A DNA stretch of 64,000 bases, from NCBI GenBank assembly GCA_035292445.1, contig DATDQB010000020.1, positions 27,484 through 91,483 of the forward strand, read 5' to 3'. Every line of letters begins with the position of its first letter. Position 1 is the stretch's first letter. The stretch comes from Candidatus Omnitrophota bacterium. Its GTDB lineage: Bacteria; Omnitrophota; Gorgyraeia; Zapsychrales; Zapsychraceae. The position numbers were made by a program, and so were the translations under genes. The notes beneath the pieces were generated by a model. The model worked only from the letters and a program-made list of their open reading frames with translations, made no database searches and was not told the origin of the DNA. Positions 7,999 to 52,766 of this stretch are shown piece after piece.

Positions 7999-8018
7999 CT
8001 TTCTTAAAATATGAACGG

Positions 8019-19190: not shown

Positions 19191-21143
19191 CTATACAGTA
19201 ATCTTTTCCTTAGATTCTGGAGCGAGCTCTAATTTCTCGTCTTTTTGAATGGATTGTTTGGGTCGGGGCTTGATCTCTAGCTCTCGGCTGCCATAAATAG
19301 CACGGATTTTTGCATCTAAGACCTTCTGCACCTGAAGTGTAGAATTAATGCGTTTTTCAATGTGCTTGTATCCAATAATTTTGTGGAAAAGGTTACGCAA
19401 CTTGATCTTCCAATCCTTCAAACCAAGCGTCGGGTAGGCATCTTCTTTCTCCAAATTCTCGATATTCTCCAGAAGTGAAGTTAAGATGAGCGTCTCTTCG
19501 AAATTCCTTCCATAAGGCAGGAGTTCATCTAGAGGAATAATTTTTTCTTCTTTTTCTAAAGGAGAAAAGTCGCCTGTTTCGATGGCTTTAACCTTCATTT
19601 CTATTTCTTCGGTCACATCCTCCGGTTTAATTAACTTGAATTCCTTTAGGGCATTATCGTACTCTTTGCTCACAAAATAATATTCAAACAGAAGTTTGTG
19701 CTTATTGGGCAATTCTTCAACGTCAAACAGATTATCCAGCTTATATTCCTTGGCCTTTTTACAAAATTCCTCGAACCGCTCCATCCGTTTTAAATACGTG
19801 CTGTTGCCGTCCAGGCTTTCCCAATAAAGATGGCCTTTTGACAGATCGATCCCGTACTTTTCCGGATTGGCGTGGCCCGCCGAGCCCGGGTAATATTCAC
19901 AAAAGTTCAAAGAAGGATTGACCATGCTGAAAGCTTTTTTGTTATCCCTTAAGAAATCCATGAGGTATTTAAAATCGTCTTCCGTCTCCGTAGGCAGGCC
20001 GAACATGATATTGACGCTCACATAAAGGCCTGATTTCTTGCCTTCGCGGAGCACGGCGGCGATATCGACGTCCTTGCAAAGGTTCTTGCCCACATCCATC
20101 AACACTTTTAACGAGGGGGTTTCCATGCCGTAGCCCAAAAGCGTACAGCCGGCTTTTTTGAGCTTCTTGTAAAGAGGCATTCGCATTTCCTTGCGGATAA
20201 CGGCATTCTCAAGATTCCACTTCACCCTTTTGTTAAGCCCCGATTCGATCATCAGATCGCAAAATTTCTCCAGCTCGTTTATCTTTGAATTGGAAATGTT
20301 GTCGCACATGCGGAAATAACAGACGTTGGGGTATTGCTCTAATTGGTATTTGATTTCCGCGAAAACGCGTTCTGCCGTGCGCACGCGGAATTGGTTCATG
20401 AACCCGATGGCGCTGCAATAATTGCACTTATTCACGCATCCCCGCGTTGTGTACGTAGGCAAAGTATTGGGCTGATCGTAATATTTGAATTCAAAATCAC
20501 TGAAATCCGGAAAGGGCAGCGAATCCAGCTTTTTGATAAACTCGGCATGGGGCCCGCGGATCAACTTACCGTTATGTTTATAAACAAAACCGGGAACGGC
20601 TTGGCCCTCTTGGCCATTTTTGACCATCTGCATATAACCTAAAAGCGCATTCTCCCCTTCATCCTGGCTTATGGCATGGATATAATCCCGGGCCAGCAAT
20701 GTATCGGTATTTTCCATAAAGCTCGCGACGTCAGGTCCGCCTAACAGATGGATAAATTCTCCGGGCATCATATTGTGCATATCTTCAAAGAAGATCTCGG
20801 CTAATAACCGCGAGGAGCATTGGCAGGAACACCCTACAACGAGCGGATTTAATTCGCGAAGCCGTTGCATGTACTCAAGGAAAATGGCGCGATTCTCTTT
20901 ATAATAATGCTGCATCGCCTCGCGTTCCATGCAGTAATTATAACCATTGGCCATATCCCAATAGCGCCGGTACTTTTTCCCCCCAAAATTATAAGCATAC
21001 GCATTCAGGTCCAATACGGTACATGAAACGTCATTTTCCCGTAAAAAGCTTTTCAATAGTGCGGGCCCTAAAGGCGGGCATCCGACACCCCAGAACGGCA
21101 TCTGGATAATGACAAGATCGGTTTTATGTCCTTTTTTGATCAT
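19191..21143 (-). CDS. B12-binding domain / radical SAM protein (class B radical SAM, methyltransferase-like)
   Basis: 650 aa. It has an N-terminal cobalamin-binding-like segment and a canonical Cx3Cx2C cluster (TTRGCVNKCNYCS). A strong RBS (AGGGAGG) lies 7 nt upstream of the ATG. Confidence 0.8.
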   Translation of the reverse strand: MIKKGHKTDLVIIQMPFWGVGCPPLGPALLKSFLRENDVSCTVLDLNAYAYNFGGKKYRRYWDMANGYNYCMEREAMQHYYKENRAIFLEYMQRLRELNPLVVGCSCQCSSRLLAEIFFEDMHNMMPGEFIHLLGGPDVASFMENTDTLLARDYIHAISQDEGENALLGYMQMVKNGQEGQAVPGFVYKHNGKLIRGPHAEFIKKLDSLPFPDFSDFEFKYYDQPNTLPTYTTRGCVNKCNYCSAIGFMNQFRVRTAERVFAEIKYQLEQYPNVCYFRMCDNISNSKINELEKFCDLMIESGLNKRVKWNLENAVIRKEMRMPLYKKLKKAGCTLLGYGMETPSLKVLMDVGKNLCKDVDIAAVLREGKKSGLYVSVNIMFGLPTETEDDFKYLMDFLRDNKKAFSMVNPSLNFCEYYPGSAGHANPEKYGIDLSKGHLYWESLDGNSTYLKRMERFEEFCKKAKEYKLDNLFDVEELPNKHKLLFEYYFVSKEYDNALKEFKLIKPEDVTEEIEMKVKAIETGDFSPLEKEEKIIPLDELLPYGRNFEETLILTSLLENIENLEKEDAYPTLGLKDWKIKLRNLFHKIIGYKHIEKRINSTLQVQKVLDAKIRAIYGSRELEIKPRPKQSIQKDEKLELAPESKEKITV

Positions 21144-21270: not shown

Positions 21271-21801
21271 TTATAAAGGCGATTGGATCAATTTCTTTTC
21301 TTCAAGGCCCTCCATAATAGCATCAACGATACCGCCGTGATCAACCCTTTCATCATCATTATTAACGACCAGATCCGGATGCAGCGGAGGTTCAAAGTTT
21401 ATATCGACACCGACCACATGCGTTATCTCACCTGCCAAAGCCTTTTTATATAATCCCTTCGGGTCCCGTTTCATGACGGTGTCCATGGACACATCGAGAT
21501 AAACCTCGAAATATTGGGACAAATTCTTCCTATTCCATTCTTGGGATTCGGGGAACAAAGACAAAAGCGCGAACACGACATCTATGCCCTGCTTTTCCAA
21601 ATACTGGCAGAAGCGGCAGATACGCTGGGCATTCTTCTTTCTTTCCTCAATAGTGTGGCCTAAATCATCGCCCATGATGTTCCTGAAAATATCCCCGTCA
21701 AAGAACACGACCGGACGACCCATGGCCGCCAACCTGTCCCTAAGCTTCCGGCCGATGGTCGTTTTTCCCGCGCCTGACAGACCTATGATCCATATAACCA
21801 T
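21271..21801 (-). CDS. Adenylylsulfate (APS) kinase-family protein; by context a Cj1415-like cytidine diphosphoramidate 3'-kinase
   Basis: 176 aa with the Walker A motif IIGLSGAGKTT and APS-kinase layout. The size and neighbourhood match C. jejuni Cj1415 rather than a sulfate-assimilation operon. Confidence 0.8.
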   Translation of the reverse strand: MVIWIIGLSGAGKTTIGRKLRDRLAAMGRPVVFFDGDIFRNIMGDDLGHTIEERKKNAQRICRFCQYLEKQGIDVVFALLSLFPESQEWNRKNLSQYFEVYLDVSMDTVMKRDPKGLYKKALAGEITHVVGVDINFEPPLHPDLVVNNDDERVDHGGIVDAIMEGLEEKKLIQSPL

Positions 21802-21813
21802 CTTGTTCCTTGC

Positions 21814-22593
21814 TTAATTGACAGAAACTACTTTCCCGTCAACAAATAACTCTTTAGCCAACTCATAATCATTTAAGCCGTCGATCTCAAGCCAGCCGCC
21901 GTTGATCTTGACACCGTAGATATCTTCCCCTTCGTTAATAATGCCCTGGAGCATATCGGTCATGAAAGCCTTTTCAAAGGGACGATCGCAGCCCCACGGT
22001 TTTCCTCCCGCTTGACTTATCTTTTCAGCGTTCAGGAACGATCTTTTGAAAGTATCGATCCCCCGCCCCTTGAATTTCATGAGCCCGATGTAACCCGCCT
22101 GCACGTCGGCAATGGCATGGGCGGGCTGGCCGATCACCTTGATCCTGTCTTTGTCGGCGAACCGCAACGCTTCCGCGTCCGCGAGCGGATCAGTGAACCG
22201 CCTTTTCCAATACCTCTCCCAGTTCATGTCGACCACAACGGAAATATCGTGAGGGGCTGCCATGAGCTTTCGCAGCACATCTTCGTTATAAATGATATCC
22301 CCGTAGGAGACGATCGACTCATCCTTCATTTCATGCTGGACGCACCATAAGGTCATGACCATATTGGTCGTGGCGTAACGCTCATTGACATAATACTTGA
22401 CGTCCTTGCGGGAGATCTTCTGCGCCATGTACCCTTTGACGGCAATGATGTCCCGGATGCCGCAGCGCTTCATCATATCGACCTGATGGTCGAAGATGCT
22501 CGTATCGCCGATCGGCACCAGGCATTTCGGTTTTTCGTCGGTGAATGGCCTTAGCCGCTTGCCCTCACCGGCTGCAAGAATGACAGCATTCAT
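21814..22593 (-). CDS. Nucleotidyltransferase (LicC/MobA-like NTP-transferase); by context a Cj1416-like CTP:phosphoglutamine cytidylyltransferase
   Basis: 259 aa. The N-terminal AVILAAGEGKRLRPFTDEKPKCLVPIG motif is the sugar-/phospho-ligand nucleotidyltransferase signature. Confidence 0.75.
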   Translation of the reverse strand: MNAVILAAGEGKRLRPFTDEKPKCLVPIGDTSIFDHQVDMMKRCGIRDIIAVKGYMAQKISRKDVKYYVNERYATTNMVMTLWCVQHEMKDESIVSYGDIIYNEDVLRKLMAAPHDISVVVDMNWERYWKRRFTDPLADAEALRFADKDRIKVIGQPAHAIADVQAGYIGLMKFKGRGIDTFKRSFLNAEKISQAGGKPWGCDRPFEKAFMTDMLQGIINEGEDIYGVKINGGWLEIDGLNDYELAKELFVDGKVVSVN

Positions 22594-22601
22594 CTTTAAC
22601 C

Positions 22602-23540
22602 TTATCCGTCCGTCGTTTTCTGGCTTAATAAAACGGTTATCCTCGCGAAACTGTTGACGAACCCGAATAACTTCTTCTTGGACAGGTTTTCAAAAAAATC
22701 ATCCACCTTCAAATTCAACGGATATCTCTTTGGAATTTCCGATACATAATAATGGGCGCCCACGGACCTTAATGGCAAAAATCCATTTCCCCGGCAAAGC
22801 GCTTTCAAACTCCGCTTGGTGTAGAGCTTCTTCTTCAACTTGTATTTCCAGACATCGTGGCCTTTAAGCATAGACTTTGAATTAAAGAATTTGCTGTTCT
22901 CGAACCTCGCAAAAATAACACCCAGCGTAGACTCGCAGAGAATGGACTTAAAAGACGGGAAAAGCTCGTATTTCTGCCCAAACAGCAAATAGGTCATGGA
23001 GCGGCAGAACCTGCGGAACGACGTGAAATCATTGAGCCCATAGGCCGAGCGCTGGGCAATAAGTAGATGCCCGCCCGGTTTAAGAACGCGCCAAGCCTCC
23101 TTAATCGTGGTTGTATCATCATAAAGATAATGAAGAACACCGGAGGCCACGATCAGATCAAATGTGTTGTCTTCATAGCTCCATCTCGTTTCAAGATTAC
23201 CCACCGTGAAATAATAGTTGCCGTCGAGATCATCCCTTCGGCAACGCTGGGTGGCGATATCACAGAATTTTTCCGAAATATCGATGCCATGGATCTCATG
23301 CCCGCGCTGGCCTATCCGCAACGCGGTCTGGCCTGCGCCGTAACCCAGCTCCATGACCTTAGCGCCCTTGGGAAGTTCAAGCTCATCGACATATTTCAAG
23401 ACTTTCTCTAACCGGCGATTGAGCGAACGGACCGTGTGGCTATCCCAGTCATCATACTGTTTATCCCACTTGACGATCTGTTGGCTGTTCCACCAGCCGC
23501 TCACGGCTTCGATCTGCTGTTCTTTGGTAATATTTTTCAT
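22602..23540 (-). CDS. Class I SAM-dependent methyltransferase (Cj1419/Cj1420-like candidate)
   Basis: 312 aa. Motif I is VMELGYGAGQTA and the post-II motif is VLKPGGHLLIAQ. Confidence 0.7.
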   Translation of the reverse strand: MKNITKEQQIEAVSGWWNSQQIVKWDKQYDDWDSHTVRSLNRRLEKVLKYVDELELPKGAKVMELGYGAGQTALRIGQRGHEIHGIDISEKFCDIATQRCRRDDLDGNYYFTVGNLETRWSYEDNTFDLIVASGVLHYLYDDTTTIKEAWRVLKPGGHLLIAQRSAYGLNDFTSFRRFCRSMTYLLFGQKYELFPSFKSILCESTLGVIFARFENSKFFNSKSMLKGHDVWKYKLKKKLYTKRSLKALCRGNGFLPLRSVGAHYYVSEIPKRYPLNLKVDDFFENLSKKKLFGFVNSFARITVLLSQKTTDG

Positions 23541-23562: not shown

Positions 23563-25530
23563 TTAAACTAAGATTTCCACTTTTTGTGCATTTTGCGTAA
23601 TGTTTAAATAACTTTCTAAGATCTCAGGTACAAATACGTTCGGCAGTTTATAAGGAACGATATATTTCTCCCGTGGGCCATCCAAAAATTCCTCCACCAT
23701 TTTAACGCCTTCAGCATAATCATTCATAGCCCTCAAGCTCGAACCATAACCGTTCTTGGCATTCTCGCGCAAGATCTGGTATTGCGGCCTGTAGAGCGCT
23801 AAGACCGGTTTGTGTCCGTAGATGGCCTCAAAAAAGACCGTGCTGGGGATGTCGCACAGGACACGGTCGATATAAGGAAACCATTTGGTGACCTTATGCG
23901 AATCGAATTGGATATTTTCATAATTATTCTTGCGTATGATCTCCGCCATCAGATCAACGCTCTGTCCGGGTTGAATGAGCGCCTTCCAAATGAAGAAAAT
24001 ATCTTTTCTCTTCGAGAAGTATTCGGCCAAAGCCTTGTGCCACTGAACGAACTCCGCGGGAAAGGGCTGGTTCTTCTGCACGGACCTGCCGGGAGTCGCC
24101 CCGTAGATGATGGGGACAAAAAGGACCACGCGCCTGCCGCCGGCGGAAACAACGGGCCTGATCTTTTGGTCCTTCGGGAACATGCGGGTCAATTTCCGGA
24201 AAAGATAGGAAAATTCGTGAACTTGCGGATACGCATAATTGAATTCCTTTACAAGCGACTTCTCATGCTCCGCTTCGCTGGCCGACGGGCTGAAAAAGAT
24301 GTCATATTGCCTATTCACGTAAAAAAACCGGCTTTTACACTCATAGGCGTCTGAGCCGTGCGCGAAACCGATGCTTTTTGTCGATGGCGTCAGCCTGGCG
24401 GCCGCGATCGCCGCATGCTCATCGACCGTCCATATATTGGGCGTTGCCACGAAATCAATGTTATTTCTTACATAAAATTCTTTATAGTCCTTAATTCTCG
24501 CGAGCAACTCGGGACAGATATCAAAATAAAAATACTTAAACCGCGACTTAAGGATATGGGAAACATCGATCCCGCATAAATTATTAATCCATCGCATGAC
24601 ATCTCCCCGCAGGATCTTATGGAACAAATCCTCACATGCAACATAGCCCGCTGGATCATGAAGCCCGGTCTCTATACCCCTCGCCCCTAAGTGACTCAAC
24701 GAAAGTTTTTTGGCCGCCTTGCCGGTCTCGAAGTAAATATCAAAACCGTATTTGCGTGAATCCATGACAAAATCCATCGTGCCCATAAGATCGCCGAGAA
24801 CAAAGATCCGCCCTTTCGGTAAATTTGCTTGTTGCGATTTAATACATATCTTCAATCCCCTGTAATAATTCTTAAGTTTTGAGACGGGTAGGATCTTTTT
24901 CAACGAAGCTTTAAAAGTTCGAGGATGGATAGTCGCCTTCAAAGACCGTAAAAAAGAAGGTTTTCTAATTACCGGTACAGGCGCATTAAAAGCAAGACGT
25001 TCGTAGGCTATGCCCCTATCCTTGCAAAGCGGCTCTATTAACTGGGAGAACGGGCTTTCACCGACGGTAAAGGACTGGTCCAGCATTCTTCCGAAAGGAT
25101 GGCCTGAGGGATCGCTCTCTAATAACCGCTCCATCTCTTCGGGGGTGTACTTTGGCCCGTAGAAAAAGATCTTTCCCGGCTTTGCCGACTCGATGAACTT
25201 ACGCAAGATTCTTGTGCTAAGGATTACGTTGTCGGTGAGATATTTGATCGTAAAATAATAAATTGTTGCCAAATTGATCCCTAACTTCTGCGCCTCCGGA
25301 AAGGCCTCTTTAAGCTGTTTGTCAAAATCGTCATACCACGCCAATTGTGCCAAGAGGAATTCATCCGTATTACCCCTGACCTCATAGGAGGTATAAAAAT
25401 CTTCAAGCGGGACATACGAAATGCCACAACGTTCAAGGTCCAATTGCGCCCGCTCGTTTAAGGCTACGGCCCGGGTGTTGGCAGGAAAGGTATAACTCTC
25501 ATGCCATTGTTCAACTAAACAGTAGTCCAT
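23563..25530 (-). CDS. Large hypothetical protein with a GT-B-like C-terminal region (candidate transferase; paralog of 50910-52766)
   Basis: 655 aa. A C-terminal pattern (DIPSTVFFEAIYGHKPVLAL) is typical of GT-B sugar-nucleotide-binding domains. An N-terminal block (PGKIFFYGPKYT) is shared with the 618-aa ORF at 50910-52766. Confidence 0.4.
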   Translation of the reverse strand: MDYCLVEQWHESYTFPANTRAVALNERAQLDLERCGISYVPLEDFYTSYEVRGNTDEFLLAQLAWYDDFDKQLKEAFPEAQKLGINLATIYYFTIKYLTDNVILSTRILRKFIESAKPGKIFFYGPKYTPEEMERLLESDPSGHPFGRMLDQSFTVGESPFSQLIEPLCKDRGIAYERLAFNAPVPVIRKPSFLRSLKATIHPRTFKASLKKILPVSKLKNYYRGLKICIKSQQANLPKGRIFVLGDLMGTMDFVMDSRKYGFDIYFETGKAAKKLSLSHLGARGIETGLHDPAGYVACEDLFHKILRGDVMRWINNLCGIDVSHILKSRFKYFYFDICPELLARIKDYKEFYVRNNIDFVATPNIWTVDEHAAIAAARLTPSTKSIGFAHGSDAYECKSRFFYVNRQYDIFFSPSASEAEHEKSLVKEFNYAYPQVHEFSYLFRKLTRMFPKDQKIRPVVSAGGRRVVLFVPIIYGATPGRSVQKNQPFPAEFVQWHKALAEYFSKRKDIFFIWKALIQPGQSVDLMAEIIRKNNYENIQFDSHKVTKWFPYIDRVLCDIPSTVFFEAIYGHKPVLALYRPQYQILRENAKNGYGSSLRAMNDYAEGVKMVEEFLDGPREKYIVPYKLPNVFVPEILESYLNITQNAQKVEILV

Positions 25531-26588
25531 AAATTATCCTTGGCTCTTTCATAATCTTTCACCATAGATGTCATTGAGTTAAACGCTTCTTCTGAGGCCA
25601 GGGCCTTGACCTCGTCTAATTTTTCCTTCCGTTCATCCTCGGAAAAATCGCGCGGACACTTCTCCCGCTCCAACACCGTGGGAGTATAAGGCGTCGGCTC
25701 CGTTTCGAGAAAGGAACAAATTTGCGATAAAACTTCGTGTGTATTTGTCACGGTTTCATCAAAGGTGACCCTTAAAACCCTCTCACGTCCTTTCTGTGAA
25801 AGCGACTTTAAGGCTTTGTTATAGTGCTTTCTGATGCCTTCGATCATATAAATAACCCTGCCCATCTCGGACAAGCTATTGTACTTTGCCGCCCAATCCG
25901 CGGCATAATAAGGAACGACACTCCCGTTAACTTGGGTCAATACAACCTGGCAGATCTTGCTGTCATAGGTCTCGGAACCGTGCGTGATCCCTTTTTTGTC
26001 GGCACGGGCTGTTGACCTTACTTCCTCGCCATAATGGTGATTAAACCATGAGTAGACCATATCCACCGGATGACGATCGATGAATACTATCTTTAGGAAA
26101 GGAAAAGCCTCGAACCAGCTTTTCGCGTGCCACAAAGCGTCGGACAACGCCAAAACGAGCAGCGGCCGCTTTGTTTCAATATCATCGACGATAAGCCCGC
26201 CCCTTTCTGAAAGGAACCGGTCAAGGTATTTCAAAGGGTCATCCGTATTAAATATGCTGGTTTCATCGACAAAACGCATGTTCATTTCCCTGCCGATCAT
26301 GTTGTCGTATAACTTGAAATCAACTATATAGCGCAGCAAGAACACCAGCACCTCATCGGATAATTTGCCTAAATGATTAAGCGTTCCCAGATGCTCCAAC
26401 AAAATGCTCATCTTGAAATGTTCCGCCCGCTCAAGGCTGCCCACAATGGGCGCCAGCATGCTCTTTCCAGACGTGGGGGCGCCGGTCACGATGACCAAAT
26501 CCTTCAGGAACGTTTCTTTGACCAGTTTTAATTCTTTATTTGCGCTGCTCATATTATTTTTCCGTGAGTTCACTGATCTTCTTTTCAC
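25515..26588 (-). CDS. Sulfotransferase-fold protein (3'-phosphonucleotide-dependent group transferase)
   Basis: 357 aa. A 5'-PSB-like P-loop (IVTGAPTSGKSMLAP) and a 3'-PB-like motif (FIDRHPVDMVYSW, compare eukaryotic RNPKDVAVSYYHF) are both present. Confidence 0.65.
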   Translation of the reverse strand: MKRRSVNSRKNNMSSANKELKLVKETFLKDLVIVTGAPTSGKSMLAPIVGSLERAEHFKMSILLEHLGTLNHLGKLSDEVLVFLLRYIVDFKLYDNMIGREMNMRFVDETSIFNTDDPLKYLDRFLSERGGLIVDDIETKRPLLVLALSDALWHAKSWFEAFPFLKIVFIDRHPVDMVYSWFNHHYGEEVRSTARADKKGITHGSETYDSKICQVVLTQVNGSVVPYYAADWAAKYNSLSEMGRVIYMIEGIRKHYNKALKSLSQKGRERVLRVTFDETVTNTHEVLSQICSFLETEPTPYTPTVLEREKCPRDFSEDERKEKLDEVKALASEEAFNSMTSMVKDYERAKDNLWTTV

Positions 26589-26727: not shown

Positions 26728-27723
26728 CTAAACCTGGCCGACAACCTGACGACCTTCATAGATCGCTTCTTGCATTGAATAACGGCCATCATATTCTTTT
26801 GCCATCGACTGCAATAACGCAAACGCATCATGTGAGGCCATGCGCTGGATCTCCTCCAACTTCTTGTCCCTGGCCTGCGGATGTACTATCCTCGGGCAGT
26901 TTTCCTTTTTGCAAACACGGGCCGTCTGCCGTGTAGGAGATGTCCCTAAGAAATCAGCAATCTCTTTAATGACGGCGTCCGTATGCGCCGCCAGTCTTTC
27001 AAAAGAAATGATCTTTATCTGCTGTCGCTGTGACGGCGATAAAGCATCATATTTCTGATAATGGCTGTCTTCCAATTTCTTTATCATATGGATGATCCTG
27101 TCGATCTCGGACATATTAAGGTAATCCTGTTCCCAACCGGCGGCGTAATAAGGAAGCGTCTTCGCTCCCCATTCGATCGTCAACGTGGCATTTCGCGGGT
27201 TATCAAAATAGTCGCCGCCATAACCTTTGCCGTACCAGTTAAGCACCATGTCCACGGGGTGTCGCGTGATATGAATCATCCGCATTTGCGGAAAGGAGCT
27301 GAAATAAATATCGGCATGCCAGAGGGCATCATGCACCATGAGAAGATAGAGCCGCCCAGAGCTCTCCATCGCCATTAACGCCGCATCGCCTTCTTTGGCA
27401 AACAGTCTTTTGAGGTAATGGACCGGCCGCGATGATCTCCAAACGCTGCTTAGGTCCCCAAACCTTAAATTCATATTTCTGCCGATCGTCAAATCATAAA
27501 CCATCGCATCAACCGCATAGCGCATCAAACATTTGGCCGCATCATCGGGGATAGACCTTAGGACCTGCATCATGGGAACCTGTTCCATCAAATAATTGAT
27601 GGCGACATGTTCCACTCTGGCCATGCTTGAGACGATCGGCGCCAGCAATGTCTTGCCCGAGCGGGTCAATCCGGTGATCAACACGAGGTTTTTGATGAAA
27701 TTTTGCCGGGTTATTTTAGTCAT
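26728..27723 (-). CDS. Sulfotransferase-fold protein, paralog of 25515-26588
   Basis: 331 aa. It carries the same two motifs (LITGLTRSGKTLLAP and ITRHPVDMVLNWYGKGYG) and is clearly alignable to the neighbouring paralog. Confidence 0.65.
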   Translation of the reverse strand: MTKITRQNFIKNLVLITGLTRSGKTLLAPIVSSMARVEHVAINYLMEQVPMMQVLRSIPDDAAKCLMRYAVDAMVYDLTIGRNMNLRFGDLSSVWRSSRPVHYLKRLFAKEGDAALMAMESSGRLYLLMVHDALWHADIYFSSFPQMRMIHITRHPVDMVLNWYGKGYGGDYFDNPRNATLTIEWGAKTLPYYAAGWEQDYLNMSEIDRIIHMIKKLEDSHYQKYDALSPSQRQQIKIISFERLAAHTDAVIKEIADFLGTSPTRQTARVCKKENCPRIVHPQARDKKLEEIQRMASHDAFALLQSMAKEYDGRYSMQEAIYEGRQVVGQV

Positions 27724-27732
27724 GGGAGATCT

Positions 27733-28419
27733 TTATTTTTTTATGCTGTCCGCGATCCGAAGATCGCTGTTAAAAAATTTCTCGATCAAAAGGCGGTCAT
27801 GTTCACTCATGGGCTTTTGCCGTTCCGGATGCCATTCAATGCCTAAGATCGGATGGGTTTCATGGATGAACCCTTCAATAATGTCATCTTTGACGGCCCA
27901 AGCTAATAGCCCCGCCCCTAAATGGTTTTCTTTAACGGCACAACGATGATAGGAATTAACCTCGAGCTTATCCGAGCCGTAAAACTCTTTAAAATAGTCC
28001 ATCGTAATAGTGACCGTATGAGATTTTGTCACGTGCCCGTCAATTTCGCCTTCCAGCTTTCCGCCAAAATAACAATTTATCAATTGCATGCCACGGCACA
28101 CGCCTAAGACGGGCTTTTTGTTTGCAATAGCCCAGTCCAATAGTTTTGCTTCCGTTATATCCCGGGCCGATCCAGCCCATTTTCCGGACGAATTCTTTTT
28201 TAGTTCCACATTTTCACCATTGCCCAAAATCAACGCCTCGCAACCGAGCTCCTTCACGTAAGTTTCCACGTCCTTGAGCCGGCTTGGTATCAATAAAGGC
28301 ATGTAATCGCATGACTCCAGGTAAACGACCCAGTCGTGGCTGAGGGCATCGCGCAGTTCAACGTATTCCTTCGTCTCAACGGTCCTCATAGTGATGGCAA
28401 CTTTCTTGATCTTACGCAT
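27733..28419 (-). CDS. Class I glutamine amidotransferase-like / peptidase C26 hydrolase; by context a Cj1417-like gamma-glutamyl-CDP-amidate hydrolase
   Basis: 228 aa. It has the GATase1 nucleophile elbow LGVCRGMQLIN and a C-terminal IEWHPE (His/Glu) block. Confidence 0.75.
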   Translation of the reverse strand: MRKIKKVAITMRTVETKEYVELRDALSHDWVVYLESCDYMPLLIPSRLKDVETYVKELGCEALILGNGENVELKKNSSGKWAGSARDITEAKLLDWAIANKKPVLGVCRGMQLINCYFGGKLEGEIDGHVTKSHTVTITMDYFKEFYGSDKLEVNSYHRCAVKENHLGAGLLAWAVKDDIIEGFIHETHPILGIEWHPERQKPMSEHDRLLIEKFFNSDLRIADSIKK

Positions 28420-30832
28420 GGCGCTGACCCATTTCGGTTAAGGGGGTTATTATCTTTTTTTCACAATCCAGGAAAACCTGTTCGGATTTCAACAGCCTCT
28501 CGTATATCAACTCGCCGCATCCGATCGCCGCAGGAATGCCGAATTCAGCGCAGCGAATGGAAATATGGGAAGCCACCCCGCCGTACTTGGTGATGATGCC
28601 CATCGGGCTTTTGGCAAAGATCCAGTCAAAGCCCGGGTCCGCGTTCTCAAGAAGCACAATATGGCCGCTCAGGTCTATTTCTTGCATAGTCTTAATGGTG
28701 TTAAAAGGTAAGAGCTTCCCCTGGATGTTCTTTTTCGTAATAAAATTGGGCTTTGCTTCATAGGGGGCAACAAAGTAAAAATCTTTAACCGATGCAATTA
28801 CAGGGGGAAGTATCACCAAGTCATACCATTCCCTTTCCTTTTTATGCCGATCAATGCTTTGTTGGATCATGTGCCTGGCATAATGGTGGTCGCCCTTTTC
28901 CGGATTCCTGAATTTCATGAGCGTCGGCAGATCCGCGTGGCACAGCTCTTCCCGCTTAAACCCCAACAGCTCACCCGCCTCGGCAATGAGCTCAAGCGCG
29001 TCGCTGAGGCTCTTGGTGAACTCAAACTTCGCATATTCCCGGTTTTCGGTCGCTGATCTGATGAAATTCAGCAGATCTTCTGCCTTACCGTTAAGGCCGC
29101 GCTCGCGCATAGCATCCGTAATCCGTTGATATACAGCCGGAGAGACTTCAAATTTATGGTCTGGCCGCTTTGTCGCTTTGGATGCGGCTTTTTGGCTAAA
29201 AAGGTGCGATGACTGGTCATAACGCGGCGTTGTAATGTCATAGGTCCCCGCGCGCAGATGGCCATAGCGCTTCAGAAAATCCTTTTTGGAAAGTTTTCCG
29301 TCCTGAAATAAATAGGAATCGTCATTAAACTGCGAGGCGACCGTACGGATGGAATTGAAAAAATCATGGTAAAAATCTTCCGTGATGACCCCCTGGTCCT
29401 TTAGACTGTTCAACAAACTTTTTGCAATGAATGCCAGCCTTGCCTGGCGAGAAAAAGGCAGCGTGCCGTATTTCTTGCAGTTTTGCAAGATATGGAATGC
29501 CGTATTCAATATTTCCCAGGGTGTCTTTTCCTGTTTCTCATGAAAGGCAATGATCTGCTCGCGCCGATCAGTAAGAAAACGGACCATATCAAGGTCTTCT
29601 TGGGAGATCCTTTGGTAATCCTGAAGAAGCCTCGCCGTTAAGCGCTTGATCGCCTGCTTAAACTCATCGATCCCCCCCCTTGTGAAACCCTCTTGCAGGA
29701 GAGCCTCGAGGGATCTGTCTGTCGAGAAATCATAACATGTCCAAAGGATCTCAAATTCCACCTTATCCTGAAGCGACGGATTCTTCTTTAATTTCCCTAA
29801 ATAAAAATTGATCAGCTTTTCTCTCAGATCGTCAGAAATGTCGACCGGTGTCAGCGAATTGAAACTGATGCGGGTATCGATATAGGGCTTTTTGGCAAAC
29901 GACACCATGAGCTCAGCGGGAAAAACATCATAATACCCAAGCGATGTCCTGGCCTCATGCCAGATCTCATCGGTGACAATGAAACTATAGATGGTATAGT
30001 CAAGCGTGTTGGGGCGGCTTCCGATGATCTCCGATGGGTTCCAATCCGGCATGTCCCCGAACACGGTCCCCTCCCCGGCCAAATGCGGTATCCGCCGGGA
30101 ATACCGATTGAACTTTTTGGCCATGTCGATGATCAGATGCTCGACAAATTCATCTTGAGGGATTTCCAACGCGCTGTTAGCCGCCAACGGCCGCACCTGG
30201 AAGATCACCACGCGATTGGACCGCGTGATCGCGAATTCAATATCAAGCACTTGGCCGGAAAATAATGCCTCGATCTCTTTAACAGCCCTCAATAAATTCG
30301 CCCATTTCTCCTCCAACTCGCTTCCATTGAAGTGGGATATATAAACCGTCTGGCCTTCCATGCCTCCTGTCACCGTGTCCGTCCTGCCGCTTCTCTCATC
30401 AAAATTAATGACATAATACGGCGCGTTGGTGCCGATCTGCCGGGTGAAAATAACGCCGCTCACGATGATATCCCGCGTCTGCGGCTGGATAAGGATCTGG
30501 TCATCCTTGGTATGGACTTTTGATTTGCTGTATGAGGCAACAACGCGTTCAACGGCTTCCCTGATATGCTCCGGCTTGGGCTCGACATTCAACTCGCTAT
30601 GAAAAGCTCCGGCCTGTGATTGAAGCTGTGTGTCCTCGGCGAAAGCGGAGCTGCGCACAATAAGTCTTTCCGATTTGAACCGCTCACAGACCGCTTCGAC
30701 CACTTTCTCTTTGCCGTTCACCCATTCATGGACGGTACAATAGAAAATGTCTTCGATCCGGGAGTTCTTTACCCTCGGTTTCAACCAGTTCAGCACGTTT
30801 GTTTTTGATAATCTTTCTATTTCAGATTGCAT
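28412..30832 (-). CDS. PEP-synthase / pyruvate-phosphate-dikinase-like phosphotransferase lacking the PEP-binding barrel; by context a Cj1418-like L-glutamine (amide) kinase
   Basis: 806 aa. It has an N-terminal PPDK_N/ATP-grasp hallmark (LIVRSSAFAEDTQLQSQAG) and a C-terminal phospho-His swivel domain (KYGGVASHISIRCAEFGIPAAIGCG). There is no TIM-barrel PEP domain. Confidence 0.7.
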   Translation of the reverse strand: MQSEIERLSKTNVLNWLKPRVKNSRIEDIFYCTVHEWVNGKEKVVEAVCERFKSERLIVRSSAFAEDTQLQSQAGAFHSELNVEPKPEHIREAVERVVASYSKSKVHTKDDQILIQPQTRDIIVSGVIFTRQIGTNAPYYVINFDERSGRTDTVTGGMEGQTVYISHFNGSELEEKWANLLRAVKEIEALFSGQVLDIEFAITRSNRVVIFQVRPLAANSALEIPQDEFVEHLIIDMAKKFNRYSRRIPHLAGEGTVFGDMPDWNPSEIIGSRPNTLDYTIYSFIVTDEIWHEARTSLGYYDVFPAELMVSFAKKPYIDTRISFNSLTPVDISDDLREKLINFYLGKLKKNPSLQDKVEFEILWTCYDFSTDRSLEALLQEGFTRGGIDEFKQAIKRLTARLLQDYQRISQEDLDMVRFLTDRREQIIAFHEKQEKTPWEILNTAFHILQNCKKYGTLPFSRQARLAFIAKSLLNSLKDQGVITEDFYHDFFNSIRTVASQFNDDSYLFQDGKLSKKDFLKRYGHLRAGTYDITTPRYDQSSHLFSQKAASKATKRPDHKFEVSPAVYQRITDAMRERGLNGKAEDLLNFIRSATENREYAKFEFTKSLSDALELIAEAGELLGFKREELCHADLPTLMKFRNPEKGDHHYARHMIQQSIDRHKKEREWYDLVILPPVIASVKDFYFVAPYEAKPNFITKKNIQGKLLPFNTIKTMQEIDLSGHIVLLENADPGFDWIFAKSPMGIITKYGGVASHISIRCAEFGIPAAIGCGELIYERLLKSEQVFLDCEKKIITPLTEMGQRHA

Positions 30833-32069
30833 GCGATACCTTCTTGTTTCCGGTCACTTCAAAGACCTTCTCCCCCATGACTTCGGCCAGGTATTGTGCG
30901 ATCAACTGATTTCCTTTTTTTGTAATGTGGCCCCCATACAGATCCTCTGTATAAAAAGTCGCCAAATCCTGCTTAAGAATAAAATCGCTTAGATCAATGA
31001 CGGTCATCTCCTTGCCGATCTCTTGGTAGAATGGACGATAAGCAGATCCCCTCTTAAAATGCACAATACGCTTTAGGTCCATAAGCTGCGGTATAACGAC
31101 GATGACGGGCTGATGCCCGCGACCTTCGGCCCCGGCCTTGAAACGCATCAAAATGGATTTTAACAAAGCACAAGATTCTTTATCAGAATACATTTGATGG
31201 GCTTGATCGATATTACCCTCCATAATGATCTGAAACGGCCTGTTCTCGAGCGTCGAATTGGAACGCTTCACGGACCGCGCCAGAACCCGGACAATGAGGC
31301 TTGCGATCAGCCGGCTGTTCCTTTTAAAATTACGAAAATAACTTAGCGTGTAAGGAAAACGGAATTGCATATGCCGAAACTTTGAGGCGTAAAACCCGTC
31401 GTTTTTCCGAAGGTCTCTCAATTTCGGTTCCAGCTCTCTAAAATCCTCTTGTGTTTGCATCACGTTCGGTAAAAGCTCCAACTGTCCGTCTTTGAGCACG
31501 AACCTCGGCTTGAAAGCAAACGTGTTACCGAACTCCAGATAATGCTTCCAATACGACTGCACGCGGCAGATCGTCTCCGGGACAAAGGAGAATATAACAA
31601 TCTTCACCGAATCCGCCAGCTGCGTCCGCTCATAACGTAACAATGTTTGGTCAACCCCGTAATTTCCCACCCCGTAATTGGACACGCCGATACCTAACAG
31701 CTGCGTCAAATAGACCTGCCAAGTCTCGTCGTCATTGACCTGCCGGCAAAAATTGTAAGAATCCCCGAAGGTGGCGATTGTCTCTTCTTTATCCGCCAAC
31801 AACGGATTTGTCCTGCCGCCTTTGGCATCGATCGTGAACGTCGTACGAACGTCGCGCGCCTTTTCCGCGCCCGAGGTATGGGGCCTTCGCACCCATCCTA
31901 ACTGCCCATCGAAGCCGTGATTGAAAAACTTCTCCAACCCCTGCTTGTCCAAAGCCGGCAATTCATCTGCTTCCGTGATAAGCCATTGGAAATCCCTGTG
32001 CAAATATTTGATCAGCGCAATAAAAGCCACCTCAAGCAATATAATTCCTATTAGGATAGAGTAGATCAT
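30822..32069 (-). CDS. Membrane-anchored SGNH/GDSL-family hydrolase (candidate glycan O-acyl esterase/transferase)
   Basis: 415 aa. It has an N-terminal TM helix and a GDSL block-I TIATFGDSYNF. The size and anchor resemble AlgJ/AlgX-type proteins. Confidence 0.5.
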   Translation of the reverse strand: MIYSILIGIILLEVAFIALIKYLHRDFQWLITEADELPALDKQGLEKFFNHGFDGQLGWVRRPHTSGAEKARDVRTTFTIDAKGGRTNPLLADKEETIATFGDSYNFCRQVNDDETWQVYLTQLLGIGVSNYGVGNYGVDQTLLRYERTQLADSVKIVIFSFVPETICRVQSYWKHYLEFGNTFAFKPRFVLKDGQLELLPNVMQTQEDFRELEPKLRDLRKNDGFYASKFRHMQFRFPYTLSYFRNFKRNSRLIASLIVRVLARSVKRSNSTLENRPFQIIMEGNIDQAHQMYSDKESCALLKSILMRFKAGAEGRGHQPVIVVIPQLMDLKRIVHFKRGSAYRPFYQEIGKEMTVIDLSDFILKQDLATFYTEDLYGGHITKKGNQLIAQYLAEVMGEKVFEVTGNKKVSHAI

Positions 32070-33154
32070 CGCTCTTCTTTCGCCAAAAGATGCCTGGCGC
32101 GGCCTCCATTAACATAATCCCATCGTAAAGGGCTTCCCTTTTTAATATTCTTGATAGCCTGCTTTCCCCAGAATTTATCGGCATATTTGGGGCTCAATCC
32201 ATGGCCGGGCCTGATGGAGCGGACATTGTTCTCATCAAACTTCTCGCCCTTTTTGATGTCCCTGACCGCAAACAACGACCGCCTGAAAACACGGCTTTTC
32301 ATTTCCTCTTGGCTAATGACGTTCTTTTCCTGGCCTAACGCTTTCTCCACAAGCCGGATATGATCAACCAATGTTTTCAGCTCATGCGGATCGATGGAAA
32401 AGAAACTATCCGGTGTCTTGTGCCGCTTCGATAGAATAAAATGCTTTTCAACGAGGACCGCCCCCAGGGTAACGGCAACCAATGCCATGTCGACCCCTAA
32501 AGTGTGATCGGAAAACCCAATGGGGCACTTAAATCGTTCCTCCATCGCCGGAATAGCGCGTAAATTCATCTCCTCAGGAATTGCCGGATAATTGCTGACG
32601 CATTTTAATAGAATGATCTCTTTTGCCCCTGCTTCGCGTGCCGCCTTAACAGCCTCTTCTATTTCCTGTTCGGAAGCCATGCCGCTGGACATAATTAATG
32701 GTTTCTTGGTCTTGGCGGCATACTTGATCAATGGTATGTCGACCAATTCAAAGGAAGAAATTTTGTGCGCCGGAACATTGAGATCTTCCAACAGATCAAT
32801 GCTCGTTTTATCAAAAGCCGATGAAAAAAAGCAGATCCCTTCATCGTCACAAACCTTTTTCAGCTTCTTGAACCAATGCCACGGGGTATAGCCCTTTTTA
32901 TAAAGCTGATACAAAGTTTGCCCGCCCCATTTGGGATGTTTGACCTGAAAATATTTGTTACTGCTGTTCAATGTAATGGTATCCGGCGTATACGTCTGGA
33001 ATTTCACCGCATCGGCCCCGCAGGCCTTGGCCTCTTTGATCATGTTGACGGCACGGTCGAACTTTTGGCCATGATTGGCGGAGATCTCCGCGACAATAAA
33101 TGCCGGGCAATTGTCACCTATTTGTTTATTGCCGATACGTATTTTTGTCATCAT
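32066..33154 (-). CDS. NeuB-family nonulosonic acid synthase (sialic/pseudaminic/legionaminic acid synthase), copy 1
   Basis: 362 aa. IVAEISANHGQKFDRAVNMIKEAKACGADAVKFQTY is present, followed by a C-terminal SAF domain. Confidence 0.85.
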   Translation of the reverse strand: MMTKIRIGNKQIGDNCPAFIVAEISANHGQKFDRAVNMIKEAKACGADAVKFQTYTPDTITLNSSNKYFQVKHPKWGGQTLYQLYKKGYTPWHWFKKLKKVCDDEGICFFSSAFDKTSIDLLEDLNVPAHKISSFELVDIPLIKYAAKTKKPLIMSSGMASEQEIEEAVKAAREAGAKEIILLKCVSNYPAIPEEMNLRAIPAMEERFKCPIGFSDHTLGVDMALVAVTLGAVLVEKHFILSKRHKTPDSFFSIDPHELKTLVDHIRLVEKALGQEKNVISQEEMKSRVFRRSLFAVRDIKKGEKFDENNVRSIRPGHGLSPKYADKFWGKQAIKNIKKGSPLRWDYVNGGRARHLLAKEER

Positions 33155-34611: not shown

Positions 34612-34613
34612 CT

Positions 34614-35393
34614 CTATTTCCTTACAGGAATCCCCTGCTTTTCCATATCTTCTTTACATGTCATCGGTGTAATGCTCGTAAAATGAAAGATGCTGGCAGC
34701 GGATACGGCCGAGGCCCCTTGTTGGATCGCGGCACTGCAATCACTGGGGCTCGCCGCTCCTCCCGCCACAATTAAAGGAATATCCCTGACGATGGAGGCC
34801 GCATACCGGATCAGATCCAGATCGTACCCGCTCATTTTTCCGTCCAGATCCACGTTATTGAGCAATATCTCCCCGACTTTACAATATTCCATCAATATTT
34901 TAAGGACCTCTTCAAAGGTATAGCGGATCTCACGCCCCGCATGGGAATACAACTTATACTGGCCATCCTCCCCTTTTCGAACATCGATGGATGCGACAAT
35001 GCATTGGCTTCCAAAGACCTCGACCGCCTGTTTGACGACATCAATGTCGTCAAAAATAATCGTGTTCAGCGATACTTTATCCGCTCCCGCCTCCAACGCG
35101 TTGGCGATGTCTTGGCAGGACCTTAAACCACCCCCTACAGTTAACGGCATAAAACAATGGTCCGCAACAGTTGAAACGGTATGCAGGTCAATGCCCCGAC
35201 CCTTTTTGGAGGCGTCGATATCCAGTAAGATCAACTCATCAATGTTACGGTTGTTATACACCCTGGCCACCGTTATCGGATTGCCCAGATTGCGACGGAC
35301 ATCGAACTGGATCGTTTTAACGACGGAATAACCGTCCAACAGGACAAGCGGTATGACGCGGTGGCGCAACATGATCAATATTTCCCCTTGCAA
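34614..35393 (-). CDS. HisF-like cyclase subunit (imidazole-glycerol-phosphate-synthase-like; acetamidino-sugar amidotransferase component), copy 1
   Basis: 259 aa. RVIPLVLLDGYSVVKTIQF...DELILLDIDAS...PLTVGGGLRS is present. Confidence 0.8.
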   Translation of the reverse strand: MQGEILIMLRHRVIPLVLLDGYSVVKTIQFDVRRNLGNPITVARVYNNRNIDELILLDIDASKKGRGIDLHTVSTVADHCFMPLTVGGGLRSCQDIANALEAGADKVSLNTIIFDDIDVVKQAVEVFGSQCIVASIDVRKGEDGQYKLYSHAGREIRYTFEEVLKILMEYCKVGEILLNNVDLDGKMSGYDLDLIRYAASIVRDIPLIVAGGAASPSDCSAAIQQGASAVSAASIFHFTSITPMTCKEDMEKQGIPVRK

Positions 35394-37915: not shown

Positions 37916-37997
37916 ATTGTCTCCCGTCATTCTTTTTTTCTATTCTGACGAGGCTCGCCCGCCAAAATTAATTTATTTTGGCGAGGCGGCCTATTAT

Positions 37998-39743: not shown

Positions 39744-39753
39744 AAAACCCTCC

Positions 39754-40416: not shown

Positions 40417-40418
40417 GG

Positions 40419-41642: not shown

Positions 41643-41655
41643 ACTCCAGAGTCCT

Positions 41656-43089: not shown

Positions 43090-43098
43090 ATGTTCCCC

Positions 43099-44781: not shown

Positions 44782-44826
44782 TGAATCATTCCTCTCTAAA
44801 TCATAACAGCCAAGTTAGAATGAAAA

Positions 44827-44961
44827 TTCCAAGAAACAAGATACAATAACCAAACAATCATCAATAAACAAATTCCAAATTCAAAACCGACCCAAGTTTG
44901 GTCTATTTGGTTATTGTTATTTGGGTATTGTTTGTTTCTTGTACCTTGGTTATTGGTTATT
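44827..44961. repeat. Imperfect palindromic intergenic repeat element, copy A (about 135 nt)
   Basis: Left arm ttccaagaaacaagatacaataaccaaacaat...ccaaattcaaaaccgacc. Right arm ggtctatttggttattg...tttgtttcttgtaccttgg. The arms are mutually reverse-complementary (caagaaacaa against ttgtttcttg). It shares words (aacaagataca, ccaaattcaaaa, tcttgtaccttgg) with the element at 53499-53635. Confidence 0.55.
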
Positions 44962-44982
44962 TCACGCATAGTATTGTTTGAC

Positions 44983-50909: not shown

Positions 50910-52766
50910 TTAAACTCCTATCAATTCGCCGCTTGCCGCATATAAATGCTGGTGCAGCCTCTGTTGCGCCTGGCCGTCGCAATAACGGTCGATATATTTT
51001 TTTACATACGCATCCTGGTATTCCTTGAATTCCTCTTCACTGCATTCATGAAGCCAATAGTGGGCGGCTTGCTTGAGCTGGTCATATCCTCTCACGCAAA
51101 ACTTTGGCATCTTGAATACGTCGAACACGGCCTGGTCAAACCTGTCTGATGTGACCTGACAGACCGCTCTTACGCCGCCAACGAGCGCTTCCTGGGTGGC
51201 GCTCGAATTAAAACCGCCGATCACCAGATCAAATATTCCCATAAAATCAAAACTCGCATAATGGGGCGCTTTTTCATTCGCAAAAATGACCCGCTCATGG
51301 CTGATGAGCTTCTTGAATTCAGCGTTCAACTCCTTGCTCTGCTCTATCGCATCCTGGCTTCTTGTCTTGAATATGAAAAAATACTGTTCGTGCTCTTGGA
51401 TGAAACGGTATGCATCGCGATAGCTCGCAATACCTTCCTCCAAATTAAAAAACCCGGCCCTTCCTATCGCCGTATCAAAAAACCCTATCAATTTTCTATC
51501 GAGCGGGACGCCGAATTCCCTTTTCAGCCGATCCTTACGTGCAGGATCATGCTTAGTCTCATAAATGATATCGGAGGGGTACGTGCCTGTATCAACATAA
51601 TTCTCGATGCAGTTCCTTGATCTTGAAAAATTATTGAGCGAAATAAAGTTTGAAAAGATGGTGCCGTAGACCGTATAACTGTAATACAAGTCAATGGGCA
51701 AACTCATATCTTCCCTGTAAACATAATCAAAACTCGCCGATTTGTAGACAAACACGGTTTGAGAACCATGCCTTTCCTGTATCAAGGTGCGCGAGACGCT
51801 CCCCGGGTCCTGAACAGCGATGAATTTCTCAACCCTGTACTTCTCGAAAAACATTCCCCATTCGATGAAATCCTTGATGGTCTTCAGATAAACCCTTAAC
51901 ACACCGAGCTTAGGCTTTTGAACCGACCGGAAAAGTGTTTGTAGGTGCTTGATCCCGGGAAGTATATTCTTTCGATAGACTTCCTGACTGAAATTTCTCG
52001 TCATTTCCTTGAAATAACATTGGTCGAACCCGTTCCCCGAAAGCCTCTCCAGAACCGGCGCCGACATCTTTCTGTCCATGACATAAAGCGTGTCCTTTTG
52101 ATCAACGCCCGTTTCAGGATGGATAAACTCAAGCTTGTTGATGTTCTTTTTCAGATCGATCCCGCTATCGAACATGAGTGCTGCATTCTTGTATTCTTTT
52201 ACTGCATATTTGGTTTCTTTGCCCTTCATGGTAAATTGCAAAATGGTTGGATAGAATTTTATCCCCATTCGGTAAACGAAGCTGGTTTTCAGTTCCTGCT
52301 GATACATCGCGTTAAGGTACCATGCGGGTATCGTAAAGCAATCCGGCAAGAAGCCTTTCTTTTCGGCCAAGATCTTGTAGATCGAATAATAAAATGGCTT
52401 CGGTATGAAATGTATCTTCTCTTTAATGTTGTGTTTCTTGACAAATTCGACGGCGAACGCAAAAGAGATCATAAGATCGGCCAACTGGGCAACGATCTCC
52501 TTTTGCATAAAGTTCTTCGCCCGAGGATCGGCAAAGGCGCGTATCAGGGCTTCTTCCTGTTCTTGCGTCACATAGTCCCGGTAAAACCAATCCATGGCTT
52601 TGGCCGCTTGAGAGCGCACAACATAGCGCTGGGTCAGATCAAATAGATCGCATTCAAGCAAGGTCGCATTGCGGCAATCCCCCTCTGCAACATAAAGGGA
52701 ACTATAGCCCTTGCATCTTGAAGGCTTATATTGAGCCGCGTGTTCTAATAAACAGACTTTTGACAT
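50910..52766 (-). CDS. Large hypothetical protein with a GT-B-like C-terminal region; paralog of 23563-25530 (candidate nonulosonate or other group transferase)
   Basis: 618 aa. The C-terminal LVIGGFNSSATQEALVGGV pattern and the N-terminal KEKIHFIPKPFYYS block are shared with the 655-aa ORF. Confidence 0.4.
   Translation of the reverse strand: MSKVCLLEHAAQYKPSRCKGYSSLYVAEGDCRNATLLECDLFDLTQRYVVRSQAAKAMDWFYRDYVTQEQEEALIRAFADPRAKNFMQKEIVAQLADLMISFAFAVEFVKKHNIKEKIHFIPKPFYYSIYKILAEKKGFLPDCFTIPAWYLNAMYQQELKTSFVYRMGIKFYPTILQFTMKGKETKYAVKEYKNAALMFDSGIDLKKNINKLEFIHPETGVDQKDTLYVMDRKMSAPVLERLSGNGFDQCYFKEMTRNFSQEVYRKNILPGIKHLQTLFRSVQKPKLGVLRVYLKTIKDFIEWGMFFEKYRVEKFIAVQDPGSVSRTLIQERHGSQTVFVYKSASFDYVYREDMSLPIDLYYSYTVYGTIFSNFISLNNFSRSRNCIENYVDTGTYPSDIIYETKHDPARKDRLKREFGVPLDRKLIGFFDTAIGRAGFFNLEEGIASYRDAYRFIQEHEQYFFIFKTRSQDAIEQSKELNAEFKKLISHERVIFANEKAPHYASFDFMGIFDLVIGGFNSSATQEALVGGVRAVCQVTSDRFDQAVFDVFKMPKFCVRGYDQLKQAAHYWLHECSEEEFKEYQDAYVKKYIDRYCDGQAQQRLHQHLYAASGELIGV

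Follow-up and report, generated by a model that had tools for sequence, protein, structure and literature searches.

A predicted GT-B-fold transferase takes the Cj1421/Cj1422 position within a phosphoramidate cassette in an Omnitrophota genome and is by sequence unrelated to the Campylobacter enzymes

The 64,000-nucleotide stretch of a Candidatus Omnitrophota genome analysed here (contig DATDQB010000020.1, positions 27,484 to 91,483; the whole stretch is referred to as the window) carries one surface-glycan cluster, with all of its large open reading frames (ORFs) on the minus strand. The gene at 23563..25530 (-) encodes a soluble protein of 655 amino acids (aa), predicted to be a GT-B-fold transferase and belonging to a large, uncurated family of 600-650-aa proteins. 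It occupies the position that cj1421 and cj1422, the genes for the O-methyl phosphoramidate (MeOPN) transferases, hold relative to the donor-making genes of Campylobacter jejuni, but by sequence and profile the protein itself is unrelated to these enzymes. The function that we tentatively favour, at somewhat less than even probability, is that of a glycosyltransferase that depends on a cytidine nucleotide, is dedicated to the decorated glycan and probably transfers a nonulosonate.

The ORF had been placed by a preliminary description, made from the DNA letters, between a methyltransferase gene and a sulfotransferase-fold gene, and this placement is confirmed by the Pfam matches of the two neighbours; the ORF itself begins with ATG and has a conserved N-terminus. 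Sixteen homologs at 42-63% identity align with the protein end to end from an invariant Met1, indicating that both the gene and its start codon are real. The start overlaps the upstream sulfotransferase-fold gene (25515-26588) by 16 nt, and 22 nt separate the end from the downstream S-adenosylmethionine (SAM) methyltransferase gene (22602-23540); at 0.462, the gene has the same G+C content as the window. No hydrophobic segment resembling a transmembrane span was found in the protein. Its exact match in public data is a hypothetical protein from a Candidatus Omnitrophota metagenome-assembled genome (MAG), and a tblastn search against plasmids yielded no match.

A GT-B-like fold had also been proposed from the sequence, and the structure search supports it. 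An AlphaFold2 model built from a deep alignment reached a pLDDT of 91.6 and a pTM of 0.92, compared with a pLDDT of only 67.9 from a shallow alignment. Foldseek comparison of this model with the PDB returned 144 matches at E<=1e-3, and all 50 of the matches listed are GT-B enzymes, including UDP-GlcNAc 2-epimerases (among them NeuC), OtsA, CalG1/3, BshA and TagF-like capsule polymerases. The best matches are the UDP-GlcNAc 2-epimerases, and the top structures are epimerases and ordinary glycosyltransferases rather than TagF-like enzymes; the TagF-like polymerases 8qoy and 8a0c, one of which was solved with cytidine monophosphate (CMP), nevertheless appear at E 2e-6 to 8e-6. The secondary structure of the model suggests that an extra N-terminal alpha/beta region (approximately residues 1-180) precedes two Rossmann halves (~240-450 and ~467-620).

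A search of 1.84 billion cluster representatives with a profile built from close homologs retrieved 558 proteins at E<=1e-3 (210 of them at E<=1e-30), nearly all of which are 600-650 aa long and matched over their full length. Among 139 full-length members, H391 is invariant and L24, W65, D70, D100, A377, F513, K516, N539, D560, P562, E568 and P575 are nearly so, the core residues being identical in near and distant members. By contrast, D394 and H498, present in 100% of the near clade, are elsewhere variable or replaced by Q. On the domain division suggested above, H391 would sit in the first Rossmann half, whereas K516, D560 and E568 would belong to the second, where they may contact the nucleotide.

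Curated models say little about this family. Pfam and NCBIfam searches with the protein and its relatives gave nothing usable: apart from Glyco_trans_4_2, which 6 of 17 members matched at E 0.0055, the only signals were local matches to TIGR04331. The preliminary description had pointed to Capsule_synth (KpsC/KpsS), TagF and Maf as families to be checked, and none of these models was matched: Capsule_synth (PF05159), Maf (PF01973, MptE-like/DUF115) and Glyphos_transf (PF04464, TagF) were all silent at E<=1 in the 17 members, and the Pfam scan of the same members revealed no Epimerase_2 signal. Searches of the PDB by sequence and by profile, using two family alignments and an alignment of the C. 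jejuni enzyme, yielded nothing meaningful either.

The sole curated family that leaves a signal here, faint but repeated, is the uncharacterised LIC12162 family (TIGR04331/PF27859), which occurs in O-antigen and sialic-acid clusters and has been reported to adjoin sialic-acid genes (PMC6679464). Two relatives of the 655-aa protein scored 17.8-21.2 bits against TIGR04331 over ~40 aligned residues (E 1e-4), far from the cutoff of 225, and precomputed PF27859 matches on several members are graded 'weak' or 'faint'; the protein itself gave no match to the LIC12162 model even at E<=10. The two families are similar in length (the model has 585 positions), are both found in surface-glycan/nonulosonate clusters and have in common a C-terminal nucleotide-binding motif, D-x-P-S-T-x-F-F-E-A. 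LIC12162 is at best a distant sister family.

A working model for the proposed function is provided by the BFO_1060 family of Tannerella forsythia, GT-B/TagB-type transferases of pseudaminic and legionaminic acid (Pse/Leg) derivatives proven by knockout, which are encoded beside a nonulosonate locus and a methyltransferase (PMC5420450). These enzymes are ~445 aa long and carry HP and D/E-D/E-G motifs, whereas the 655-aa protein has HG and lacks D/E-D/E-G; the corresponding model, NF046086, was not matched by it. The TagF-like CDP-glycerol/ribitol phosphotransferases (including Bcs3 and Cps3D; CDP, cytidine diphosphate) offer another comparison, with a GT-B-like fold, a cytidine-nucleotide donor, a CMP leaving group and a histidine base, but they are neither specific nor top among the structural matches, and the protein has no Glyphos_transf sequence signal. 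The protein came out negative for Cj1421/Cj1422 (see below), LIC12162, HP-motif sialyltransferases, TagF, Capsule_synth and Maf; membership in a GT-B family without a curated model describes it best.

For comparison with the Campylobacter enzymes, the N-terminus of the MeOPN transferases of strain 81-176 was read from primer ak265 (PMC3907429) and made into a degenerate pattern for MYNPNSAIE. Scans of genome contigs with primer CS-1246 or with this pattern found no C. jejuni locus; in metagenome contigs the pattern identified a 1.1-kb Campylobacter fragment, from which a protein search led to a locus (L005) of a complete C. jejuni genome. Its MeOPN transferase genes comprise one encoding a 622-aa protein and one frameshifted copy, each combining DUF8374 (PF28160) at the N-terminus with DUF2972 (PF11186) at the C-terminus, in agreement with the published make-up (PMC5808241); the protein L005:11881-13746 matches PF11186 at E 4e-37. 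DUF2972 was found in neither the 655-aa protein nor its 16 close relatives at E<=1, and when the family profile was compared with the 622-aa enzyme by hhalign, the probability was 0.24%. Moreover, the Cj1421/Cj1422 N-terminus (DUF8374, MYNPNSAIERVKNHLAYKLGQ...) bears HLxYKLGQ repeats, which are missing from the unrelated N-terminus of the Omnitrophota protein, and the C. jejuni transferase genes carry a phase-variable homopolymeric G tract, whereas no G/C run of >=7 and no homopolymer tract occurs in 23563-25530. What the two do have in common is their length of ~600-650 aa and their encoding beside a methyltransferase and the Cj1415-1418 donor genes. The correspondence with Cj1421/Cj1422 drawn in the preliminary description is sound as regards size (655 versus 622 aa) and position and does not extend to kinship.

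The C. jejuni protein itself offers a lead: in the Cj1421-like protein L005:11881-13749, GCSGHT (~aa 248) and ILTRDPLSRLKTW (~aa 326) stand 84 residues apart, a gap equal to the spacing of the 5'-phosphosulfate-binding (5'-PSB) and 3'-phosphate-binding (3'-PB) motifs of sulfotransferases; by eye, the motifs so spaced read GCSGHT and TRDPLSRLKTW. Hhalign of Cj1421-like proteins against the sulfotransferase-like clade described below gave 1.3-1.6%, which is not significant, with shallow alignments.

A further claim concerned the 618-aa protein encoded at 50910..52766 (-), which had been taken for a clear paralog. This relationship failed in every comparison: BLASTP against the 655-aa protein gave a best E of 0.11 with scattered fragments and no collinear alignment, phmmer against 165 family members found no match, a hidden Markov model (HMM) of 139 family sequences gave 1.6 bits, and the hhalign probability was 0.6%. 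Beyond the generic C-terminal pattern of GT-B enzymes, in which D-x-x-S-[ST]-x-x-x-E-A comes after a strand ending in K, the two proteins share nothing; this pattern is probably what had been noticed. The 618-aa protein is an orphan: it has no Pfam or NCBIfam match and no relative in any fetched locus; one hydrophobic window lies near its residue 91. Its gene is flanked by those for a CMP-nonulosonate synthetase (52745-53473) and a PtmE-like CBS+NTP-transferase (49835-50908).

The cassette around the 655-aa protein is genuine, as judged from direct BLASTP matches to the Cj1415-1418-like proteins of locus L005, against which all identities given here were computed, and these matches also bear out the position of the gene. 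All of its genes lie on the minus strand. They encode a Cj1415-like cytidine diphosphoramidate 3'-kinase of the APS-kinase fold (21271..21801; Pfam APS_kinase, 41% identity, E 3e-40), a Cj1416-like CTP:phosphoglutamine cytidylyltransferase (21814..22593; Pfam NTP_transf_3, 35% identity, E 7e-54), a Cj1417-like gamma-glutamyl-CDP-amidate hydrolase of the Peptidase_C26/GATase type (27733..28419; 29% identity, E 2e-20; E 9e-31 and 107.5 bits against NF045546, under that model's 250-bit cutoff) and a Cj1418-like L-glutamine kinase of the PEP (phosphoenolpyruvate)-utilising enzyme family (28412..30832; NF004508, PRK05849-type, E 3e-258; 32% identity over 809 aa, E 2e-148). The likely donor, CDP-phosphoramidate 3'-phosphate, is what these four enzymes produce in Campylobacter (PMC11800397). 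The 312-aa SAM methyltransferase (22602..23540, -), recognised by Pfam and by orthologs in cassette loci and inherited together with the 655-aa protein, is 21% identical to the C. jejuni Cj1419-like protein (E 6e-5) and probably O-methylates the phosphoramidate.

Two features of the cassette region deserve mention. In the intact glutamine-kinase gene, eight consecutive C at 29672-29679, hence G8 on the coding strand, form the sole G/C run of >=8 in the window. Beside the cassette, a B12-binding radical-SAM protein (19191-21143, -) bears a weak likeness to P-methyltransferases of the PhpK/Sden_1168 type (E 2e-16 to 2.5e-15, far below the cutoffs); similar genes flank the cassette in the related loci L001 and L002, and occur in L010.

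Between the 655-aa protein and the hydrolase lie two sulfotransferase-fold genes. The first (25515..26588, -) matches Pfam Sulfotransfer_3 at 32.9 bits (cutoff 27) as well as Sulfotransfer_1, and its product contains the motifs VTGAPTSGKSML and DRHPVDMVYSW; the second (26728..27723, -) matches Sulfotransfer_3 at 37 bits. The two are paralogs of ~35% identity and fall, by clade HMM and alignment, into a tight clade whose motifs are VTGxxRSGKSML and RHPxDxVYSW. Members of this clade were found in every bacterial non-Campylobacter glutamine-kinase cassette seen (L001:6324-7295, L001:8981-9997, L002:17027-18055, L007:6303-7604, L017:3553-4533 and L014:12433-13416). In Leptospira ilyithenensis (L014) the clade gene directly adjoins the kinase (E 4e-75), and this species has the clade and not the family of the 655-aa protein, so that the clade tracks the cassette more widely. 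The fold would suit a phosphoramidate donor, since the donor carries a 3'-phosphate like 3'-phosphoadenosine 5'-phosphosulfate (PAPS; PMC11800397). These two neighbours, which the preliminary description had passed over as candidates, are at least as good candidates for the Cj1421/Cj1422 role as the 655-aa protein. We regard their clade as a strong candidate for the phosphoramidate transferase, and as the better one.

In L001, an insertion sequence (IS) element (7684-8597, with HTH_Tnp_1 and rve integrase genes) lies between the two sulfotransferase-fold genes. Fusions of 729-751 aa combining pyruvate-kinase-like, PUA_2 and ATP-sulfurylase domains are encoded beside the cassette at L007:7643-9832, L015:15862-18117 and L016:15874-18117; found in two very distant lineages, they may serve true sulfate activation or a variant phosphoramidate pathway. 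L007 additionally has a CysQ-like Inositol_P gene beside its cassette.

The module of the window recurs in at least four other contigs, with its gene order shuffled. In L001 (family member P0013, 52% identity to the 655-aa protein) the order is sulfotransferase-fold gene, IS element, sulfotransferase-fold gene, family member, methyltransferase, glutamine kinase, Peptidase_C26 gene, NTP-transferase gene and APS-kinase gene; in L002/L003 (P0016, 43%) it is kinase, Peptidase_C26, family member, APS-kinase, GT1 and NTP-transferase genes; in L007 (P0019, 37%) kinase, APS-kinase, Peptidase_C26, CysQ-like, NTP-transferase, methyltransferase and sulfotransferase-fold genes, the ATP-sulfurylase fusion and the family member; and in L017 (P0030, ~32%) Peptidase_C26, NTP-transferase and APS-kinase genes, a gene of unknown type, a sulfotransferase-fold gene, the family member and the methyltransferase. 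Orthologs of the 312-aa methyltransferase in L001, L002 and L007 are 66, 54 and 46% identical to it. The idea of a 'triad' in non-cassette loci, in which a sulfotransferase and a methyltransferase would go with the family member, was weakened, the 312-aa methyltransferase being orthologous only among cassette loci.

More distant family members, at ~20-30% identity (P0035 in L010, P0045 in L009, P0090 in L011, P0106 in L012 and P0150 in L013), reside without exception in nonulosonic-acid clusters with NeuB, CMP-synthetase, PseG/H fusion and HisH/HisF-type amidotransferase genes, and no glutamine-kinase cassette is in view in these five loci; the ancestral job of the family can therefore do without phosphoramidate. 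Of the 10 family loci, 8 have NeuB or CMP-nonulosonate synthetase genes in their fetched flanks, and such genes also accompany the gene in the window.

Conversely, the cassette occurs without a member of the family in Leptospira ilyithenensis (L014), in a Nanoarchaeia MAG (L015/L016) and in C. jejuni. The glutamine kinase is itself widespread: its homologs form at least 6,435 clusters, found in Omnitrophota, Nanoarchaeota and Leptospira among others. That the cassette is spread so far is not in itself new, as MeOPN-type gene sets outside Campylobacter have already been noted for Borg elements (bioRxiv 10.1101/2024.11.05.622173). Many of these kinases (P0218-P0285; L002:6025-8895; L015:10001-12904), especially those of Nanoarchaeota, bear an N-terminal CTP_transf_like fusion, and some of the fused proteins also carry an APS-kinase domain, uniting two or three pathway steps in one protein. 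At the end of the Leptospira cassette lies the gene for a different, 588-aa protein (L014:14914-16680), which weakly matches the BFO_1060 family (NF046086, E 1e-7) and displays the C-terminal motif pattern of the family of the 655-aa protein (hhalign 3.8%).

Elsewhere in the window, the region 32066-49816 (-) contains two separate nonulosonic-acid pathways, one of which ends just upstream of the cassette. The window's nonulosonate genes include two NeuB genes (32066-33154 and 47039-48136, both -), two CMP-synthetase genes (37163-37930 and 52745-53473, both -), two HisF-like genes, one HisH-like gene, and PglD-like, DegT and Epimerase_2 genes. A 347-aa MptE-like protein with a DUF115, Maf-type nonulosonate transferase domain (55253-56296, -) is encoded beside a B12 radical-SAM gene and a legionaminic-type subcluster. 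Three B12-binding radical-SAM proteins (19191-21143, 37998-39743 and 53661-55253, all -) are encoded in a single glycan cluster.

In the reading that we tentatively favour, the 655-aa protein would be a fixed part of an eight-gene module in this Omnitrophota lineage, made up of the four enzymes for 3'-phospho-cytidine-5'-diphosphoramidate, one or two sulfotransferase-fold proteins, the 312-aa methyltransferase and the protein itself. The C-terminal of its two Rossmann halves (K516, D560, E568) would be the binding site for a sugar activated with a cytidine nucleotide, the most plausible one being a CMP-nonulosonate supplied by the adjacent NeuB/CMP-synthetase genes, and the invariant His391 of the N-terminal half would activate the acceptor, so as to install a residue bearing, or next to, the phosphoramidate decoration. 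The phosphoramidate would then be the business of the PAPS-type sulfotransferase-fold neighbours, followed by O-methylation by the methyltransferase. We infer this division of labour from the nonulosonate ties of the family, the PAPS-like donor and the more faithful tracking of the cassette by the sulfotransferase-fold clade. Several observations weigh against it. The HP and D/E-D/E-G motifs conserved in known sialyltransferases (GT38/52/80, BFO_1060) are absent from the family, in which the invariant H391 precedes Gly; the window holds other candidate nonulosonate transferases, namely the Maf-type domain protein at 55253-56296 and the 618-aa orphan; and no nonulosonate genes are visible in the fetched flanks of L007 and L017. 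Furthermore, all five members at >=31% identity (those of the window, L001, L002/3, L007 and L017) lie within or adjoin a cassette, in three of the five loci with cassette genes on both sides, and the methyltransferase diverges across the cassette loci in the same order as the 655-aa protein. Such strict linkage and in-step divergence would be just as compatible with the protein taking part directly in phosphoramidate transfer; the context sample from which they come is small (10 family loci) and biased, since the cassette-positive loci were found via the family itself.

These last observations are the strength of the chief alternative, namely that the 655-aa protein is itself a phosphoramidate transferase, non-homologous to Cj1421/Cj1422, whose near clade exchanged a CMP-sugar donor for CDP-amidate or the 3'-phosphate of the latter. 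The base that deprotonates a sugar hydroxyl for attack on the beta-phosphorus with expulsion of CMP, as in TagF-like enzymes acting on CDP-glycerol, would then be His391, and the sulfotransferase-fold neighbours would be ordinary sulfotransferases; the clade-specific D394 and H498 next to the catalytic motif, the TagF-like polymerases among the structural matches (one with CMP), and the ATP-sulfurylase fusion and CysQ-like phosphatase beside the sulfotransferase-fold gene of L007, which fit a separate sulfation branch, can all be accommodated by this scenario. We nevertheless regard it as less probable than the favoured reading, given the distant members in clusters with no cassette in view, the three lineages in which the cassette occurs without the family, the conserved 3'-kinase, which points to a PAPS-like donor with the sulfotransferase fold as its natural partner, and the lack of both a Glyphos_transf sequence match and TagF-like enzymes among the top structural matches. 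Both functions that the preliminary description had offered, phosphoramidate or nonulosonate transferase, are still alive after testing. It is improbable that the protein is some other GT-B enzyme, be it a TagF/TagB-like CDP-alcohol phosphotransferase forming a phosphodiester, or a hydrolysing 2-epimerase or PseG-like hydrolase: the GT-B fold does host chemistry other than glycosyl transfer and the best Foldseek matches are UDP-GlcNAc 2-epimerases including NeuC, but the nonulosonate pathways of the window and related loci already own Epimerase_2 or PseG-like genes, neither Epimerase_2 nor Glyphos_transf leaves a sequence signal, and the family, at 600-650 aa with an extra N-terminal region, differs from these ~370-aa enzymes. 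A common ancestry of the 655-aa protein, the 618-aa protein and Cj1421/Cj1422, as originally envisaged, is scarcely credible, as similar lengths (655, 618 and 622 aa) and a short common C-terminal pattern are set against its refutation at the sequence and profile levels by the BLASTP, HMM, hhalign, phmmer and DUF2972 results reported above.

The O-methyl phosphoramidate modification has so far been identified only in Campylobacter, according to a 2019 review (PMC6429109), and its attachment enzymes have been defined by gene knockouts only. In the Omnitrophota genome, the four donor-making genes are accompanied not by DUF2972 proteins but by a GT-B protein, two sulfotransferase-fold proteins and a methyltransferase dedicated to the module, which is a variant of the MeOPN system that differs in its candidate attachment enzymes. 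The near clade might conceivably represent a second, independent class of phosphoramidate transferases operating with TagF-like CMP release, or a transferase specific for a phosphoramidate-modified nonulosonic acid, a pair of prospects to which we grant a probability well short of even. If either were true, glycans of the O-methyl-phosphoramidate type would extend well beyond Campylobacter, to Omnitrophota and related uncultured lineages, and would be built with different attachment machinery. Knowing which protein moves the phosphoramidate would provide soluble, non-phase-variable enzymes for a reaction not yet reconstituted and would show how widespread glycans with P-N decorations are, and the 655-aa protein offers a way into a family of ~560 clusters for which no curated model exists.

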